Origin: a virus
Lineage: Duplodnaviria > Heunggongvirae > Uroviricota > Caudoviricetes
Strand: one strand, 5' to 3'
IMG/VR virus record: IMGVR_UViG_2547132270_000004
Location: 1 to 4,711 of that record
DNA: 4,711 nt
Within the stretch, counting starts at the first letter, position 1, and the number at the start of each line of letters is the position of its first letter. Below, in pieces: positions 1 to 4,711 of the stretch. The position numbers were made by a program, and so were the translations under genes. The notes beneath the pieces are model-generated. The model did not search any database. It was not told where the DNA came from and saw nothing but the letters and a program-made list of their open reading frames with translations.

Positions 1-19
1 GCATCACAAAATTCACTTT

Positions 20-61
20 AAAAAGGGCGGCAGAGCAGTCACGGAGTAAAACTGATACCGC
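20..61 (-). terminator. Rho-independent terminator forming the 3' end of DicF
   Basis: On the minus strand GGCGG (61-57) pairs with CCGCC (29-25) around an imperfect extended stem, followed directly by a TTTTT run (24-20). Confidence 0.55.
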
Positions 62-77
62 CAAACGCCACCAGAAA
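25..77 (-). ncRNA. dicF: DicF small regulatory RNA (ftsZ-targeting sRNA of the dic division-inhibition operon)
   Basis: Minus strand reads TTTCTGGTGGCGTTTGGCGGTATCAGTTTTACTCCGTGACTGCTCTGCCGCCC followed by TTTTT. This is 53 nt and matches my recollection of E. coli K-12 DicF at all but one position (G for A at the 10th nt). It lies at the distal end of the minus-strand operon downstream of the DicA-like repressor, as in Qin. Identity is from memory, not a search. Confidence 0.8.
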
Positions 78-413
78 ATTGATAACAGAGGGCGTTGTAG
101 CGGGGTTGTCACTTAAGCGTATGGTCAACCTGACAACCCGGTGTCCTCAACGGGGAAGGAATAACCCCGCCATACTTACCGCCGCGCCATTTCGCGGAGT
201 GCCACAACCGGAAGCGCACGGTCGAATTAAATTTAACGACACCGTACAGAGAGACCAATTTCGCCGTGTGCTTTCGCGTTATGCCCTGGCTTTTCAGGGA
301 TATATCCTTTCAGTAAACTGTCAGTACCGGATTCTTATCCGTGTCCGGCGCACGACCACACGTGACAGCGTGTTGGTCTCCATTTTTAACCCAGAACCTC
401 AATGGAGGATAAA

Positions 414-623
414 ATGCCAAACAAAAAAAGAAATCCGCTTATTGAAAAACAGATTGAATGCCTTGTAAATCAACTCAGGCAATCAGGGTTATTAAAAACT
501 CATTCAGAGTTGAGGCTCACAGAATCAGCATTCGACGATAAATTAAATAATGTCCTTTATAATGGCATTATTGATTTTAATCGTTCTGTTGGTCGCCGCG
601 GCCCTGCTGGTGTTTCCTTATAA
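414..623 (+). CDS. Hypothetical small protein (69 aa), convergent with the minus-strand operon
   Basis: ATG at 414 has a perfect GGAGG (404-408) 5 nt upstream; the ORF-track start at 402 has no RBS. Open frame to TAA 621-623. No recognisable domain. The C-terminal third overlaps an alternative-frame hydrophobic ORF, so the true coding frame is uncertain. Confidence 0.4.
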   Translation: MPNKKRNPLIEKQIECLVNQLRQSGLLKTHSELRLTESAFDDKLNNVLYNGIIDFNRSVGRRGPAGVSL

Positions 624-1262
624 TTACCAGTCAATCCAGAGCGGACCGTGTTCAGCGTAAATATAACTGTACACATCCAGATTATATTTGTGGTCTGTTA
701 AGAACAGGCCGCAAATACATGCCGAAGCTTCAAGGGCAGCGGCTCTGTTACTGAATAACCATGTAGCAACATTCCAGCGTTTTTCTGCATCCCAGTCTTT
801 CTCAAGGCCTGATACCATGAAGAAACCGTTAGTGTTGCCATCAAATAATTCTGTTTCCAGATTTTTAAGCAATGCCTGATGGACTCTTGCCAGGTATTCC
901 GCCGGAATTTTGCCACGAATTCTGATGAGATTGTCATAAACAAACATGTTCCCCGCATATGGCGATTTTTCTTTCTTGTTTTTTAAACCAGCATCATGAG
1001 CAAACTGATCAATTTCTTCTTCCGTTGGTTTCGTATTGATGTTTTGCGCTGTCGTTTCTGCAATTTTATTTGCCACACTCTCTGAGTCGTGTTTATTTAT
1101 AGACGCACAGAAATACAATCCGGTAAACGCATCGCGCACATTACGAGCTATATTATCAGTGTCTTTTTTCGTTACCGATTCCAATGCAAGTTCGTTCAGA
1201 CGATGACGAAGTGTATGTGCTGCAATCTCCTGGATTGAAGTAGGTAAATCTTTAAATTCCAT
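624..1262 (-). CDS. Hypothetical protein (212 aa), unrecognised cargo gene in the repressor-controlled operon
   Basis: Long minus-strand ORF (216 codons in the track). Preferred start is the internal ATG at 1260-1262, preceded by GAGG with a 6-nt spacer (minus strand TGATGAGGTTGACGATGG). The alternative ATG at 1272-1274 overlaps the upstream stop (TGATG). Predicted soluble and acidic, with no motif I recognise. Confidence 0.75.
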   Translation of the reverse strand: MEFKDLPTSIQEIAAHTLRHRLNELALESVTKKDTDNIARNVRDAFTGLYFCASINKHDSESVANKIAETTAQNINTKPTEEEIDQFAHDAGLKNKKEKSPYAGNMFVYDNLIRIRGKIPAEYLARVHQALLKNLETELFDGNTNGFFMVSGLEKDWDAEKRWNVATWLFSNRAAALEASACICGLFLTDHKYNLDVYSYIYAEHGPLWIDW

Positions 1263-1273
1263 CGTCAACCTCA

Positions 1274-1426
1274 TCAGTCAGAGTTTCTTGCTAACCAGCG
1301 ATGCGCGCCAGCTTCGGTTTTAAACGTTTTACTTTTGGTATACGTCATCGCGGTGAACGTGCCGTCCTGGTTGGGAAACACGTCGTACACCAGAGATTCG
1401 TTGTTGCCAAGATCGATAGTATCCAT
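1274..1426 (-). CDS. ydfA: Small protein (50 aa), YdfA-like (DUF1391-type) directly downstream of the dicA-like repressor
   Basis: The track ORF 1274..1519 has no RBS at its first ATG. The internal ATG at 1424-1426 is preceded by GGGGAAATGAGG (SD GAGG, 5-nt spacer). Size (50 aa) and position match ydfA (51 aa) of Qin and ydaF of Rac. The family assignment rests on synteny and size, not on verified sequence identity. Confidence 0.6.
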   Translation of the reverse strand: MDTIDLGNNESLVYDVFPNQDGTFTAMTYTKSKTFKTEAGAHRWLARNSD

Positions 1427-1503
1427 GCTGACCTCATTTCCCCTTAACGCCGGGGTAGCGGAACTGTTTGCTGAGAACACCGTGCGGTGTCTTGATGAAT
1501 GAT

Positions 1504-1555
1504 AATTTAGTTTTCTCATGTTAATTGGTCAAGTATTTTTGATGAGAAAACTCAA
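1504..1555 (-). promoter_or_regulatory. Putative sigma70 promoter of the early-left (dicB-type) operon with two flanking operator-like sites
   Basis: Minus strand: -35 TTGACC (1532-1527), 17-nt spacer, -10 TAAATT (1509-1504). Operator-like TGAGAAAACTCA at 1543-1554 sits just upstream of the -35. An 11/12 copy TGAGAAAACTAA (minus strand, 1518-1507) overlaps the spacer and -10. Confidence 0.45.
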
Positions 1556-1560
1556 TATTT

Positions 1561-1599
1561 AATGCAAAATAAAGCCAATACATTGAAATGTAAGGCTTT
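1561..1599 (-). terminator. Weak AT-rich hairpin plus T-tract downstream of the repressor gene (possible attenuator or terminator)
   Basis: Minus strand AAAGCC (1599-1594) and GGCTTT (1576-1571) form a stem, with an inner ACATT/AATGT pairing, followed by ATTTTGCATT (1570-1561). The stem is AT-rich, so termination efficiency is doubtful. Confidence 0.25.
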
Positions 1600-1616
1600 A
1601 AAATTTGTGAAGGGAG

Positions 1617-2024
1617 TTATTGATGTTTGTTACGTTTGCGAGCTTCTAGTAGCTCGGTGAATAGGCGATTAAAATTCTCAACGCGGGCACGGAGTTCGCT
1701 GATTTGTGCTTGCTGCTCTGATTTTGGAAGTGCGCGATACAATCGCAACATCTCCAACTCATCTTCCGATAAGTCTAAGGCGCTGTTGAGTGCAACTGGT
1801 GGATCTGGTGTTTTATCCTCGTCACCAAACAGTATCCAAGTTGGTGAACATTGCAATACCTCAGCCAGGCGATGCAAATTTTGCCCACGCGGGGCTGTAT
1901 GGTCGCTTTCCCATAGTGAAATTGATGAGCCAGATACGCCAGCAGCTTTGCTTAAATCGTTTTGACTTAAACCAACCTGTTTGCGTCTTTCTCTAATTCG
2001 TTGACCTAAAGTTTTCTCGTTCAT
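1617..2024 (-). CDS. dicA: DicA-like HTH (XRE/Cro-C1 family) prophage repressor, 135 aa
   Basis: N-terminal HTH (QRIRERRKQVGLSQNDLSKAAGVSGSSISLWES) and the motif LQCSPTWILFGDEDK, which I associate with DicA/RacR-family repressors. Start chosen at the ATG at 2022-2024 (MNEKTLGQ...), giving 135 aa as in K-12 DicA. The track start at 2075 would add 17 residues and leave no room for the divergent promoter. Confidence 0.85.
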   Translation of the reverse strand: MNEKTLGQRIRERRKQVGLSQNDLSKAAGVSGSSISLWESDHTAPRGQNLHRLAEVLQCSPTWILFGDEDKTPDPPVALNSALDLSEDELEMLRLYRALPKSEQQAQISELRARVENFNRLFTELLEARKRNKHQ

Positions 2025-2045
2025 ATTTAGATATCTTAATAACCC

Positions 2046-2088
2046 TTGACTTGAGATTCCTTGAGTGATTACCATTGAGAAAACTCAA
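2046..2088 (+). promoter_or_regulatory. Putative promoter of the cro-like gene with an overlapping inverted-repeat operator
   Basis: -35 TTGACT (2046-2051), 18-nt spacer, -10 TACCAT (2070-2075). The 14-bp inverted repeat TTGAG-AAAA-CTCAA (2075-2088) overlaps the -10 and the predicted +1. Extra TTGAG half-sites occur at 2051-2055 and 2061-2065. SD GGAGGGG (2093-2099) precedes the ATG at 2102. Confidence 0.45.
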
Positions 2089-2101
2089 TTTTGGAGGGGC
2101 G

Positions 2102-2329
2102 ATGTTTAAATCAGACGTAATTAATTTTTATGGGACGAAAGCCAAAGTAGCGAAAGCTGCTGGTGTTGATCCATCTGCTGTTTCTCAATGGGGGGCACTG
2201 GTTCCTGAAGGTCGCGCGATGCGCCTGCAAGAGGCATCCGGCGGGGAACTTCAGTACGACCCCAAAGTTTATGACGAATATCGTAAGGCAAAGCGGGCGG
2301 GGCGGCTGAACAATGAAAATCACCCCTGA
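2102..2329 (+). CDS. dicC: Cro-like HTH regulator (DicC/YdaS family), 75 aa
   Basis: Divergent from the repressor gene. ATG at 2102 follows a strong SD GGAGGGG; the track start at 2075 is a TTG lying inside the operator. HTH-like segment GTKAKVAKAAGVDPSAVSQW. Size matches DicC (76 aa). Confidence 0.8.
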   Translation: MFKSDVINFYGTKAKVAKAAGVDPSAVSQWGALVPEGRAMRLQEASGGELQYDPKVYDEYRKAKRAGRLNNENHP

Positions 2330-2834
2330 ACAGGTTTGTGAGGCTCTGGATGCCTGGGTATGCCGACCAGGAATGACACAGGAGCAGGCGACGATATTAA
2401 TCACGGAAGCATTCTGGGCTCTGAAAGAACGCCCGAACATCGATGTTCAACGCGTCACGTTTGATGATGGCGCGGTTGATCAACGGGCGCTGGGCGTCAA
2501 CCGGGTGAAGATATTCGAACGCTGGAAAGCTATTGATACCAGGGATAAGCGGGAAAAATTCACGGCGCTGATTCCGGCAATTATGGAGGCTATCCGGATA
2601 AGTGATTTCAGGTTGTATCGTGAAATTACTGACGGAAAAAGCATTACATACATGATCGCCGGGTTAAACAAAGAATATGGCGACGTGGTGGAGTCAGGTC
2701 TGCTTTTTGCAGATCCGGCTGTTGTGGATCGTGAAACCGACGAACTTATAGAAAAAGCCATTGCTTTCAAGCGTGCGTATCGTCAGCAATATCAACAAAA
2801 AGCCGGATGGAATTATGAGTCTTCTGTTTGCTGA
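2313..2834 (+). CDS. cII-position regulatory protein (173 aa), possibly YdaT-like CII functional equivalent
   Basis: ORF overlaps the cro-like gene by 17 nt (2313-2329) and sits where lambdoid phages carry cII. It shows no resemblance to lambda CII itself. The YdaT-family assignment is by synteny and vague recollection only. Confidence 0.75.
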   Translation: MKITPEQVCEALDAWVCRPGMTQEQATILITEAFWALKERPNIDVQRVTFDDGAVDQRALGVNRVKIFERWKAIDTRDKREKFTALIPAIMEAIRISDFRLYREITDGKSITYMIAGLNKEYGDVVESGLLFADPAVVDRETDELIEKAIAFKRAYRQQYQQKAGWNYESSVC

Positions 2835-3780
2835 ACGCCCACTGGTTATTAACACGCAGCTGGCGATGAAAATTGGCCTGAATGAAGCCATTGTACTGCA
2901 GCAGCTGCATTACTGGTTGAGAGATACTAATTCCGGCATGGAATGTAACGGGGTTCGCTGGATTTATAACACAACAGAACAATGGCTGGAACAGTTCCCG
3001 TTCTGGTCAGAGTCAACGTTAAAACGCGCATTTGCAAGTCTGAAAACGCTGGGGCTTTTGCGTTGCGAAAAGCTCAACAAATCAAAGCGTGACATGACTA
3101 ATTTTTACACGATTAATTACGAGAGTGAGCTTTTAGATGGTGGCAAAGTGAGCGAATCCATCAGGTCAAAATGCGCCGCTCCATCAGGTCAAAATGACAC
3201 GATGGAAGAGGTCAAAATGGCACGCTCCATTGGTTCAAAACGACCCAATGTCATCGGGTCAAAATGGCCTGATGATCTTACAGAGAATACAACAGAGAAT
3301 ACAACAGAGAATAAAAACACTTCTCGTCCGGAAGCTTCGCAACCGGACCCGCAGACGGCTGAACAGGATTTTTTAATCCGACACCCTGATGCGGTTGTGT
3401 TCAGTGCGAAAAAACGCCAGTGGGGAAGTCAGGAAGATTTGGCGTGCGCACAGTGGATCTGGGGACGAATCGTGAGTCTTTACGAGCAGGCGGCCAGCGA
3501 TGATGGCGAGATCACGAGACCGAAAGAACCCAACTGGACAGCATGGGCCAATGACGTGCGCACAATGCGGATGCTGGATGGCAGAACTCACAGACAAATT
3601 TGCGAAATGTTTGGGCGGGTACAGCGGGATCCATTCTGGGTAAAAAACATCATGAGTCCGTCAAAGCTCCGCGAAAAATGGGACGAACTGGTCATCCGCC
3701 TGGGGCGTTCATCTGTACAGCGTTGTGTGAATCATATTTCTGAACCGGACACCGAAATTCCGCCGGGGTTCAGGGGGTAA
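2815..3780 (+). CDS. Phage replication initiator / replisome organizer (lambda O-like), 321 aa, with internal iterons
   Basis: ATG at 2815 is chosen over the track's TTG at 2761; it overlaps the upstream gene's stop by 20 nt. The N-terminal domain has the look of a replisome-organizer DNA-binding domain. The central low-complexity linker is encoded by the iteron array and tandem repeats. It lies immediately upstream of the DnaC-like loader. Confidence 0.85.
   Translation: MSLLFAERPLVINTQLAMKIGLNEAIVLQQLHYWLRDTNSGMECNGVRWIYNTTEQWLEQFPFWSESTLKRAFASLKTLGLLRCEKLNKSKRDMTNFYTINYESELLDGGKVSESIRSKCAAPSGQNDTMEEVKMARSIGSKRPNVIGSKWPDDLTENTTENTTENKNTSRPEASQPDPQTAEQDFLIRHPDAVVFSAKKRQWGSQEDLACAQWIWGRIVSLYEQAASDDGEITRPKEPNWTAWANDVRTMRMLDGRTHRQICEMFGRVQRDPFWVKNIMSPSKLREKWDELVIRLGRSSVQRCVNHISEPDTEIPPGFRG
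3157..3266. repeat. Iteron array (five direct repeats, about 23-bp phasing): putative phage origin of replication inside the initiator gene
   Basis: Core GGTCAAAATG occurs at 3164-3173, 3187-3196, 3210-3219 and 3257-3266, with a variant GGTTCAAAACG at 3232-3242. Extended consensus is about TCCATCAGGTCAAAATG. The arrangement is analogous to ori-lambda within gene O. Confidence 0.6.
3280..3315. repeat. 12-bp tandem repeat ACAGAGAATACA, 2.9 copies, A-rich, encoding TENTTENTTEN
   Basis: Two perfect copies (3280-3291, 3292-3303) and an 11/12 third copy (3304-3315), immediately downstream of the iterons. Confidence 0.7.
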
Positions 3781-3786
3781 CGAACC

Positions 3787-4533
3787 ATGAAAAATATTGC
3801 GACAGGCGGCGTTCTGGAACGTATCCGCAGACTGACCCCGCCACATGTAACCGCCCCATTCAGAACGGTAGCGGAGTGGCGCGAGTGGCAGCTTGCTGAA
3901 GGCCAGAAGCGTAGCGAGGAGATCAACCGCCTGAATCGCCAGTTGCGGGTGGAAAAAATTCTGAATCGCTCAGGCATCCAGCCGTTGCACCGTAAATGCT
4001 CGTTTGCGAATTACCATGTACAGAACGACGGCCAGCGATACGCGTTAAGTCAGGCGAAATCCATCGCTGATGAACTGATGGCCGGATGCACAAATTTCGC
4101 GTTCAGCGGAAAACCTGGTACCGGAAAAAACCATCTGGCGGCGGCTATCGGAAATCGCCTGCTGAAAGACGGCCAGACAGTGATAGTGGTTACTGTGGCT
4201 GATGTTATGAGTGCCCTGCACGCCAGCTATGACGACGGGCAGTCAGGCGAAAAATTTTTGCGGGAACTGTGCGAAGTGGATCTGCTGGTTCTTGATGAAA
4301 TTGGCATTCAGCGTGAGACGAAAAACGAGCAGGTGGTGCTGCATCAGATTGTTGATCGCCGGACAGCATCGATGCGCAGTATGGGGATGCTGACAAACCT
4401 GAACTATGAGGCCATGAAAACGTTGCTCGGCGAGAGGATTATGGATCGCATGACCATGAACGGTGGGCGCTGGGTGACTTTTAACTGGGAAAGCTGGCGC
4501 CAGAATGTCGTCCAGCCAGGAATCACGAAGTAA
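3787..4533 (+). CDS. dnaC: DnaC-family AAA+ replicative helicase loader (prophage DnaC paralog), 248 aa
   Basis: Walker [18 protein letters not shown] and Walker [10 protein letters not shown]. Collinear similarity to E. coli DnaC along the whole length (MKN..., [33 protein letters not shown]). RBS GGGGG at 3772-3776. Confidence 0.95.
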
Positions 4534-4555
4534 TTTTTACCAGGAGAAAAATTTA

Positions 4556-4711
4556 ATGGAGACTGTTTTTGACGCACTGAAAGCAATGGGAAAAGCCACA
4601 TCCATAGAACTTGCGGCGCGACTTGATGTCAGTCGTGAAGAAGTGCTTAACGAACTATGGGAACTGAAAAAGGCTGGCTTTGTTGATAAAAGCGCGTACA
4701 CCTGGCGTGTG
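4556..4711 (+). CDS. Partial small ORF (5' part, 52 codons, runs off the window), possible winged-helix protein
   Basis: ATG at 4556 with GGAG (4543-4546) upstream; open to the window end. Translation begins [52 protein letters not shown]. It occupies the slot after the helicase-loader gene. Confidence 0.5.

Follow-up and report, generated by a model that had tools for sequence, protein, structure and literature searches.

A candidate RNase III stalk and a conserved pseudoknotted domain in the untranslated RNA that precedes DicF in a Qin-type prophage

The small RNA DicF of Escherichia coli prophages is preceded by a gene-free leader, which was analyzed here in a piece of phage DNA of 4,711 nucleotides (nt) (positions 1 to 4,711 of IMG/VR record IMGVR_UViG_2547132270_000004; hereafter the window, to which all positions refer unless another record is named). 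The 4.7-kilobase (kb) window is the immunity and early region of a lambdoid prophage of the Qin or dicBF type, and its nearest relatives are E. coli prophages, such as that of strain E24377A, in which dicB, ydfD and an exonuclease gene lie 3' of DicF. We find that positions 78-354 of the minus strand probably form the untranslated body of the DicF precursor, composed of an RNase III stalk, a structured domain of 115 nt and a linker with an RNase E site (Table 1). The precursor and its RNases are already known from E. coli K-12. The stalk and the pseudoknotted domain appear to be undescribed in Rfam and the accessible literature, as do the strand for which the two compete and the occurrence of the domain in phage P1 and other phages; parts of this may have been described earlier.

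The leader is homologous to the K-12 DNA immediately 5' of dicF. Between the end of ydfC (1649041) and the start of dicF (1649382), K-12 has a gene-free spacer of 340 nt, with which window positions 78 to about 354 align (alignment A1) on the same strand and contiguous with DicF, with near identity over 78-215 and about 90% identity to 354. The distance from ydfC to DicF is also about 340 nt in phages Tritos and 640R1. An earlier note, made by a model from the letters of this DNA, had taken the region for the place where K-12 has ydfB and ydfC and had proposed that it might be the decayed remains of these genes. Both statements fail, as K-12 has the same gene-free spacer between ydfC and dicF and as tblastn of YdfB and YdfC against the window returned only noise (best E about 1-2), whereas YdfA matched positions 1426-1280 with an E of 3e-29. 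The K-12 long-DicF region is thus the direct homologue, in the same position before DicF, dicB and ydfD, and the window differs from it further upstream, where ydfB and ydfC are replaced by other open reading frames (ORFs), one of 216 amino acids (aa) and one of 69 aa on the opposite strand. It differs as well by one A.C mismatch in the stalk and one substitution in DicF.

There is no credible gene in positions 78-413 on either strand. The minus-strand ORFs are all short (49 aa from TTG, 31 aa from GTG, 36 aa from TTG and 20 aa from ATG); the claim that no ORF with an ATG exists on this strand was right in that no credible gene is found, but it overlooked the 20-aa ATG ORF at 321-383. A small protein would find some support in a 129-aa TTG ORF that occupies 79-468 of the plus strand and in phage records that annotate ORFs over the homologous stretch. 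By contrast, no protein-coding frame was conserved when 49 distinct full-length homologues of 78-354 were compared: 10 of 11 indel events were not multiples of three, the variable columns were spread 37/37/35 over the three codon phases and thus had no phase bias, and the long plus-strand ORF was broken in 24 of the 49. No gene is annotated at this place in K-12 or RefSeq. With the tblastn result, these observations make a remnant of ydfB/ydfC, or an unannotated small protein encoded on either strand, very improbable.

DicF of K-12 occurs in forms of 190 nt and 53 nt (Faubladier 1990, as cited, and Ragunathan 2023, PMC10448788). The 190-nt form is lost in an rnc deletion strain, so its 5' end is RNase III-dependent, and an internal promoter was not found (Ragunathan 2023, PMC10448788). 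The 53-nt form requires RNase E, and the 190-nt form is stable, accumulates in stationary phase and rises on RNase E inactivation (PMC10448788). Band sizes were taken to mean that both terminated and read-through transcripts are made (PMC10448788), and an Hfq-enriched interval lies upstream of dicF (PMC4152368). A length of 190 nt, measured from the DicF 3' end, places the start of the long form at about window 209-214, and the RNase E-made 5' end of DicF would fall at 78/77, between AAU and UUUC. A conserved duplex and this AAU/UUUC junction are the processing signals seen in the window, the RNase dependence itself being known from K-12.

The conserved duplex is a long-range helix, for which RNAalifold on 19 leaders of the dicBF type predicts CAUAACGCGAAAGCGCACGGCGA paired with UCGACCGUGCGCUUCCGGUUGU. 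In the window this stalk has 19-22 base pairs (bp) with one mismatch and one bulge, a predicted energy of -26.8 kcal/mol and a variable apical part (260-226). By RNAduplex, a stalk partner at <= -19 kcal/mol was found in all lambdoid copies having enough upstream sequence (120/120) and in none of the P1-like copies (0/14). Across the stalk alignment, 92.9% of cells were paired and 8 of 19 pairs changed on both sides, compared to 27-45% paired cells in slid controls, and the stalk was kept with different sequences in the cdtI/Citrobacter, F1055/L047, Trabulsiella and Serratia types. About two helical turns are thus found at the expected end, with compensatory conservation across relatives, as for an RNase III substrate, and the stalk, whose 3' strand contains the expected RNase III-dependent end (209-214), is a natural RNase III site. 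The proposal of the earlier note that the region may be the structured precursor needed for RNase III/RNase E processing is borne out to this extent, in that a covarying stalk of about 20 bp contains the expected 5' end of the 190-nt form.

Duplexes of about 20 bp that flank or precede a structured RNA are familiar from ribosomal RNA (rRNA) precursor stems and the lambda N-leader site, where cutting frees the product from a polycistronic transcript. The stalk described here differs in that it does not enclose its product and in that its 3' strand overlaps the closing stem of the product. Its last six nt, GUUGUG (208-203), are also the 5' strand of stem P1 of the domain, and the 3' strand of stem P1 recurs in the stalk as CAYAAC. 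Since both helices use GUUGUG, stalk and stem P1 are mutually exclusive, and cutting of the stalk would also permit the RNA to refold.

The domain itself (208-94) was recognized by comparison. By BLAST, window positions 86-208 recur at 77-90% identity in phages without DicF, and compensatory changes in the conserved core were first seen on aligning these copies. Further copies were taken from viral and genome contigs to give an alignment of 25 non-redundant copies (A3) and one of 74 distinct copies aligned to a covariance model, R1 (A4). In A3, 92.4% of cells were paired and 11 pairs changed on both sides, compared to 4.3±1.4 in shuffled alignments; in A4, 95.5% of cells were paired and 12 pairs changed on both sides, compared to 5.6±1.5, and in neither case did any of 500 shuffled alignments reach the observed number. 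Sliding the partners reduced pairing to 30-55% (A3) and 31-55% (A4). The same helices were recovered unguided by RNAalifold and by single-sequence minimum free energy (MFE) folding, the latter giving stem P1, H1, H2 and H3. The operon strand pairs slightly better than its complement (95.5% versus 92.0% of cells), with 142 G-U cells. Folding and covariation across homologous prophages, which the earlier note had named as a check, thus found both domain and stalk to be conserved beyond shuffled and slid controls.

Helix P2 encloses the 5' strand of the pseudoknot together with H2, and the 3' strand of the pseudoknot lies in the loop of H3, which is 19 nt long and near-invariant (GGUUGACCAUACGCUUAAG). 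Stem P1 is kept with a different sequence in phages P1 and P7. Compensatory variants of H2 include CUGGG/CCCAG (phage P1), CAGGUG/CACCUG (L047) and CAGGG/CCCU (pPE4), and those of H3 include GUUGCCA/UGGCAAC in phages P1 and P7 and GGGCUGU/AUAGCCC in Serratia. The two 5-bp GC hairpins that the earlier note had singled out are unremarkable by themselves and are both real as helices of this larger structure. CGGGG-N9-CCCCG is exactly where it had been placed, at 151-155/165-169, and is helix H2; CCGCG-N6-CGCGG exists as helix H1 but lies at 182-186/193-197, 2 nt off the 180-195 given for it. In a P7-like copy (L025, 4662-4813), H2 holds an insertion of 20-odd nt with a run of 11 G, perhaps a lengthening that the variable H2 loop tolerates, perhaps an error of assembly; R1 still scores this copy at 85.9 bits.

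Model R1 scores 94-149 bits in K-12 (149), cdtI, F1055, Trabulsiella, Serratia and phages P7 and P1, and it finds no second copy of the domain on the pR side or elsewhere in the window. Rfam has no match to the domain beyond DicF, even at E<=10. ARAGORN found no transfer RNA (tRNA) or tRNA-like structure, and the best Rfam hint of this kind was mascRNA at 14.3 bits (E=3.7). Two long-range pairings from single-sequence folding (139-150/233-244 and 251-258/373-380) are not kept in relatives and were treated as chance.

Several points weigh against the reading of 78-354 as a precursor body with a conserved fold. The RNase-dependent species were measured in K-12, while the prophage studied here is known from sequence alone, and the cut position at 209-214 rests on the reported length of 190 nt. 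The stalk alignment (A7) was registered by hand, with an N as placeholder for a bulge. In the domain, H1 has no compensatory change and the pseudoknot has one covarying position (U-A in 68 copies, C-G in 3 P1-like copies and U-G in 3); the other five pairs do not vary, which leaves its support thin. The sequences compared are relatives of one another, and independent compensatory events are few, roughly 10-15. Most copies were gathered by exact-match patterns drawn from the domain, so the invariance of its loops is overstated. The Rac RNA KilS, considered below, has a stalk and a terminator without the domain. Single-sequence folding z-scores are modest (-1.4 to -2.8), which, with the commonness of short GC hairpins, is what one would expect if the hairpins were functionless chance features of a GC-rich spacer. 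Given covariation above shuffled and slid controls for both domain and stalk, and a module kept across otherwise unrelated phages, such an origin is hardly credible.

The remaining point concerns the 5' end. The apical loop of the stalk (226-260) contains a conserved TAAATT at about 231-236, and its Rac counterpart, TGTTAAATT, is extended -10-like and lies 7 nt before the KilS 5' end (L255, about 5505-5520). KilS possibly has its own transcription start (Bar 2021). An internal promoter in the stalk loop is accordingly possible as the source of the 5' end, while the K-12 Qin data favor processing.

Comparison with KilS of the K-12 Rac prophage (Bar 2021) bears on the stalk as well as on the domain. 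KilS occupies the same early-left slot, between a sieB-like gene and a kil-type division inhibitor, and has a DicF-like terminator. Its 5' 20 nt (GGGAGUGCGCCUCCGGUUGU) correspond to the 3' strand of the stalk and pair with an upstream CACAAC...GCGCA strand (ACAACACGAAGGCGCAUUUCC; L255 5406-5640, minus). By contrast to the long form of DicF, the domain of about 110 nt is missing, the linker follows directly after GGUUGU and R1 finds nothing in Rac. KilS thus looks like a domain-less paralogue of long DicF, and the domain is not needed for making a small RNA, because KilS has stalk and terminator without it.

Under the precursor reading that we prefer, the following order of events is proposed. 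The stalk would form first in the primary transcript, and RNase III would cut it (283-261/225-203), freeing the RNA from the upstream mRNA and setting the 5' end of long DicF of about 190 nt. The domain, directly 3' of the cut, would close only once RNase III has cut, so that cutting may license its folding. The 16-nt linker would carry the RNase E site that releases the 53-nt DicF, the 3' end being made by the DicF terminator. The MFE fold predicts a weak hairpin between the linker and DicF nt 6-13, which covariation does not support, and in other subfamilies unrelated linkers of 9-60 nt take the place of this linker. Among the upstream-leader hairpins, one compensatory variant (CUCUG/CAGAG) was seen, and in other prophages this block is mosaic.

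Table 1. Features of the leader, of DicF and of the neighboring region, by window position
Feature	Position	Strand	Sequence or note	Support
Long-range helix LH (candidate RNase III stalk)	283-261 with 225-203	minus	CAUAACGCGAAAGCACACGGCGA with UCGACCGUGCGCUUCCGGUUGUG	RNAalifold, RNAduplex
Upstream leader, three small hairpins	284-354	minus	conserved in dicBF-type prophages only	alignment and RNAalifold (A5)
Upstream-leader hairpin	348-344/331-327	minus	CCGGA/UCCGG
Upstream-leader hairpin	320-311	minus	CAG/CUG
Upstream-leader hairpin	299-284	minus	CCCUG-AAAAGC-CAGGG
Conserved structured domain	208-94	minus	115 nt	covariance model R1, 150.6 bits
Closing stem P1	208-201 with 101-94	minus	GUUGUGGC with GCUACAAC	3-4 of 8 pairs change both sides; in MFE fold
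Helix H1	197-193 with 186-182	minus	CCGCG-AAAUGG-CGCGG	93-96% paired; one-sided (wobble) changes only
Helix P2	181-178 with 142-139	minus	CGGU with ACCG	99.7-100% paired; U-A to C-G in P7-like copies
Helix H2	169-165 with 155-151	minus	CGGGG-UUAUUCCUU-CCCCG; loop variable	compensatory variants
Helix H3	138-131 with 111-104	minus	GGUUGUCA with UGACAACC	3-4 pairs change both sides
Pseudoknot	175-170 with 124-119	minus	GUAUGG with CCAUAC in H3 loop	99.3% paired
Linker, domain to DicF	78-93	minus	GCCCUCUGUUAUCAAU, 16 nt	expected RNase E-dependent DicF 5' end at its 3' edge
DicF small RNA	77/76-25	minus	aligns with K-12	Rfam RF00039, 76.4 bits, E=3e-16
DicF terminator U-run	24-20	minus	3' end of the described RNA	terminator hairpin in MFE fold
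Junction block	355-413	.	belongs with opposite-strand ORF 414-623	not homologous to K-12 spacer
69-aa ORF	414-623	plus	opposes early-left operon; function unassigned	PHROG 4274
216-aa ORF	624-1274	minus	between ydfA-like gene and DicF leader, where ydfB/ydfC would be	PHROG 2151; no Pfam match
DUF1391/YdfA gene	1274-1426	minus
pL-like promoter match	1532-1504	minus

The domain is widespread. It is present in 4310 of 5426 complete E. coli genomes (79%), at 8967 places and in up to 8 copies per genome, and among the best matches listed from these genomes no annotation lies under it. It is also carried by 511 plasmids of about 90-115 kb that are typed non-mobilizable, which suggests P1-like phage-plasmids, and by E. 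albertii, E. ruysiae, Shigella, Citrobacter, Trabulsiella, Serratia symbiotica and a Salmonella phage. BLAST with the Serratia copy gave no new phage groups, and a gapped pattern scan of genome contigs for distant relatives gave mostly random matches and about 15 true ones. Metagenome-assembled genomes labelled Veillonella parvula, Collinsella sp. and Bacillota (L229, L244, L224) carry Qin-like or P1-like sequence with the domain, probably as mis-binned or contaminating enterobacterial DNA.

In dicBF prophages the domain follows ydfA-type genes, and in cdtI, Ayreon, 2H10, Stx2c phages, F1055 and pPE4, where it occurs without the DicF seed, it stands a few hundred nt after the repressor gene. 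An intrinsic terminator lies 3' of the domain in 134 of 138 copies, at a spacing of 9 to >60 nt; 87 of these have a DicF seed and 47 have unrelated linkers and other terminators. The domain is thus an autonomous module: in early operons under repressor control it is found together with an intrinsic terminator, whether or not a DicF seed is present. The suggestion that the region might hold a further noncoding RNA stands insofar as the domain is an independently conserved structured module found also without DicF, and is not carried as far as an established function. No protein gene co-occurs with the domain in all contexts.

The most divergent setting is that of phages P1 and P7, where a "dicF-like region" is annotated (NC_005856) downstream of the C1-controlled promoter Pban. 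This region has the same domain (R1 94-101 bits, about 77-82% identity), with compensatory changes in stems P1, P2, H2 and H3 and in the pseudoknot, and an intrinsic terminator follows. By contrast to the lambdoid copies, there is no stalk and no DicF seed, the terminator is another one, and tRNA genes and the ban operon lie downstream; the stalk is lacking because the RNA starts about 27 nt upstream of the domain, at the promoter. Between the domain-following terminator and the tRNA genes of phage P1 (L008 2134-2238), a permuted transfer-messenger RNA model scores 24 bits (E=0.007), below the family threshold. In Salmonella phage F1055 (L011, about 2640-2740), Serratia symbiotica and Trabulsiella (L201, L245), the terminator after the domain has a much enlarged loop with a GGAGG-like site and an AUG or GUG, which suggests a small ORF or translational coupling inside the hairpin.

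DicF maturation alone cannot explain the domain, because the domain is kept with compensatory changes where DicF is missing and because KilS is made without it. We tentatively entertain the possibility that the domain acts in cis and modifies the transcribing polymerase (by antitermination or anti-pausing), so that early-left or Pban transcription would pass the following terminator. Every setting of the domain is an early operon under repressor control in which genes that need read-through lie downstream, namely dicB, kil, exonuclease, xis and int in lambdoids and the tRNAs and ban in phage P1. A terminator follows nearly every copy. Searched for N-like proteins, the early-left genes of the phages examined gave none, and HannyBb has a Q-like antiterminator only. 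In the window, the genes of the proximal pR operon overlap and a credible terminator is lacking there, in keeping with a single copy of the domain, and in K-12 both terminated and read-through transcripts were inferred from band sizes. Against this, K-12 makes the terminated products (the 53-nt and 190-nt forms and a 1146-nt transcript) in prominent amounts, which means that much of the transcription does not read through; terminator-like sites are no more frequent than expected in the remainder of the HannyBb early-left operon (8 found versus 7.8 expected); and the domain, once freed by RNase III, is part of a discrete stable RNA, as would suit a product more than a tether.

The known system nearest to such a cis action is put of phage HK022, likewise a structured RNA that precedes terminators in an early operon of a lambdoid phage lacking N. 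There is no likeness to put in sequence or architecture: put has about 70 nt with two stems and a short triplex, whereas the domain has four helices and a pseudoknot in 115 nt, and each HK022 early operon has a put site whereas the window has one copy of the domain. The putL sequence from the HK022 record gave matches of 9-13 nt at chance level, R1 had no match in the HK022 immunity region, and similarity to put was rejected. A lambda-type nut site was rejected as well. The boxA-like GUGC(U/G)CU 5' of the domain forms the 3' strand of the stalk, where it covaries with the pairing strand, and CCCUGAAAAGCCAGGG is without boxB register.

A terminator riboswitch would share with the domain a conserved multi-helix pseudoknotted fold, invariant junction and loop bases and an intrinsic terminator after it. 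This candidate was set aside on the variable spacing to the terminator, the lack of any strand shared by fold and terminator, and the lack of an Rfam match. Complementarity between terminator arms and domain, as an expression platform would need, was at chance (|z|<2) and not at homologous positions.

It is also conceivable, if somewhat doubtful, that the released RNA of about 150-190 nt (domain, variable linker and terminator) is a stand-alone early phage RNA whose domain binds a host or phage factor in trans, with DicF as one among several seeds joined to its 3' side. Two routes would lead to the same RNA with defined ends, an RNase III cut in lambdoids and a start 27 nt upstream in phage P1, with termination in both. 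The stability and stationary-phase accumulation of the 190-nt form, the Hfq enrichment upstream of dicF and the layout of variable, single-stranded, seed-like linkers followed by a U-tailed terminator, as is usual for Hfq-dependent small RNAs, are consistent with this, and near-invariant loops across phage P1 and lambdoids suggest one common partner. However, that invariance is inflated by how the copies were found, the partner is not known and no protein gene accompanies the domain everywhere, and an RNA that acts in trans would have no need of a constant place before early genes of its own strand.

Finally, the domain might be a protective or timing device, which hides the monophosphorylated RNase III end, shields the RNA from Rho and paces the release of DicF by RNase E. 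An untranslated leader of 340 nt would otherwise be open to Rho. The expected 5' end lies a few nt from stem P1, and the rise of the 190-nt form in K-12 with RNase E inactivated would fit as well. For such a device, however, a pseudoknotted fold with a near-invariant loop of 19 nt, kept at 77-90% identity between phage P1 and lambdoids while seeds and terminators change, seems over-constrained, and KilS manages without it; we regard this role as unlikely. A put-like action on the polymerase is the guess to which we commit ourselves, and it is nearly tied with the trans-acting and protective readings.

Around the leader, the window has the gene order of an early region. DicF and the leader are separate things: positions 25-76, outside the leader, reach the RF00039 gathering score of 48 bits alone, within 60-420 this model gives nothing beyond a truncated 16-bit piece of DicF itself, and the leader 78-354 is not a member of RF00039. 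At nt 10 of DicF (window 68, minus) the prophage has G where K-12 has A (UUUCUGGUGGCG here, UUUCUGGUGACG in K-12); K-12 work ties the DicF 5' region that contains nt 10 to pairing with xylR and pykA. Upstream of the leader, the junction block adjoins different plus-strand ORFs in other prophages, and a hairpin in it, CUCCAUU/AAUGGAG (378-384/401-407), covers the Shine-Dalgarno sequence GGAGG (404-408) of the 69-aa ORF. As this ORF points against the early-left operon, pL transcripts cross it in antisense. Overlapping its 3' end in another frame is a very hydrophobic 36-aa ORF (550-660, plus; MSFIMALLILIVLLVAAALLVFPYNYQSIQSGPCSA), which could be a small membrane peptide or chance. Beyond the pL-like match lies a repressor gene of the DicA/CI type, followed by pR and by cro-, cII-, O- and P-like genes on the plus strand. 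The O-like replication gene contains 5.3 copies of a 23-nt repeat (3144-3266) and then 2.8 copies of a perfect 12-nt repeat (3280-3313), likely origin iterons.

Few bacterial small RNAs have been known for longer than DicF. Gels have shown its 190-nt precursor since 1990, and the additional 135 nt have passed for spacer. Comparison of relatives suggests that this supposed spacer holds two structures under selection, a covarying RNase III stalk and a compact pseudoknotted domain that compete for one strand. Few conserved RNA structures without annotation are as common in E. coli as the domain. These structures provide a concrete, testable model for the maturation of DicF and of related prophage small RNAs such as KilS, and they point to an early-operon RNA module common to lambdoid phages and phage P1, for which reading through the early-left terminator without an N protein is one candidate role. 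On a rather doubtful, more far-reaching view, the 115-nt domain would represent a previously unrecognized kind of phage regulatory RNA whose target is the host transcription machinery, a second counterpart of put with an unrelated structure; cutting of the stalk would license its folding, and DicF would be a secondary product grafted onto an older cassette for antitermination or an early RNA. If this were true, N-less lambdoid phages and the ban operon of phage P1 would pass the following terminator by means of this RNA.

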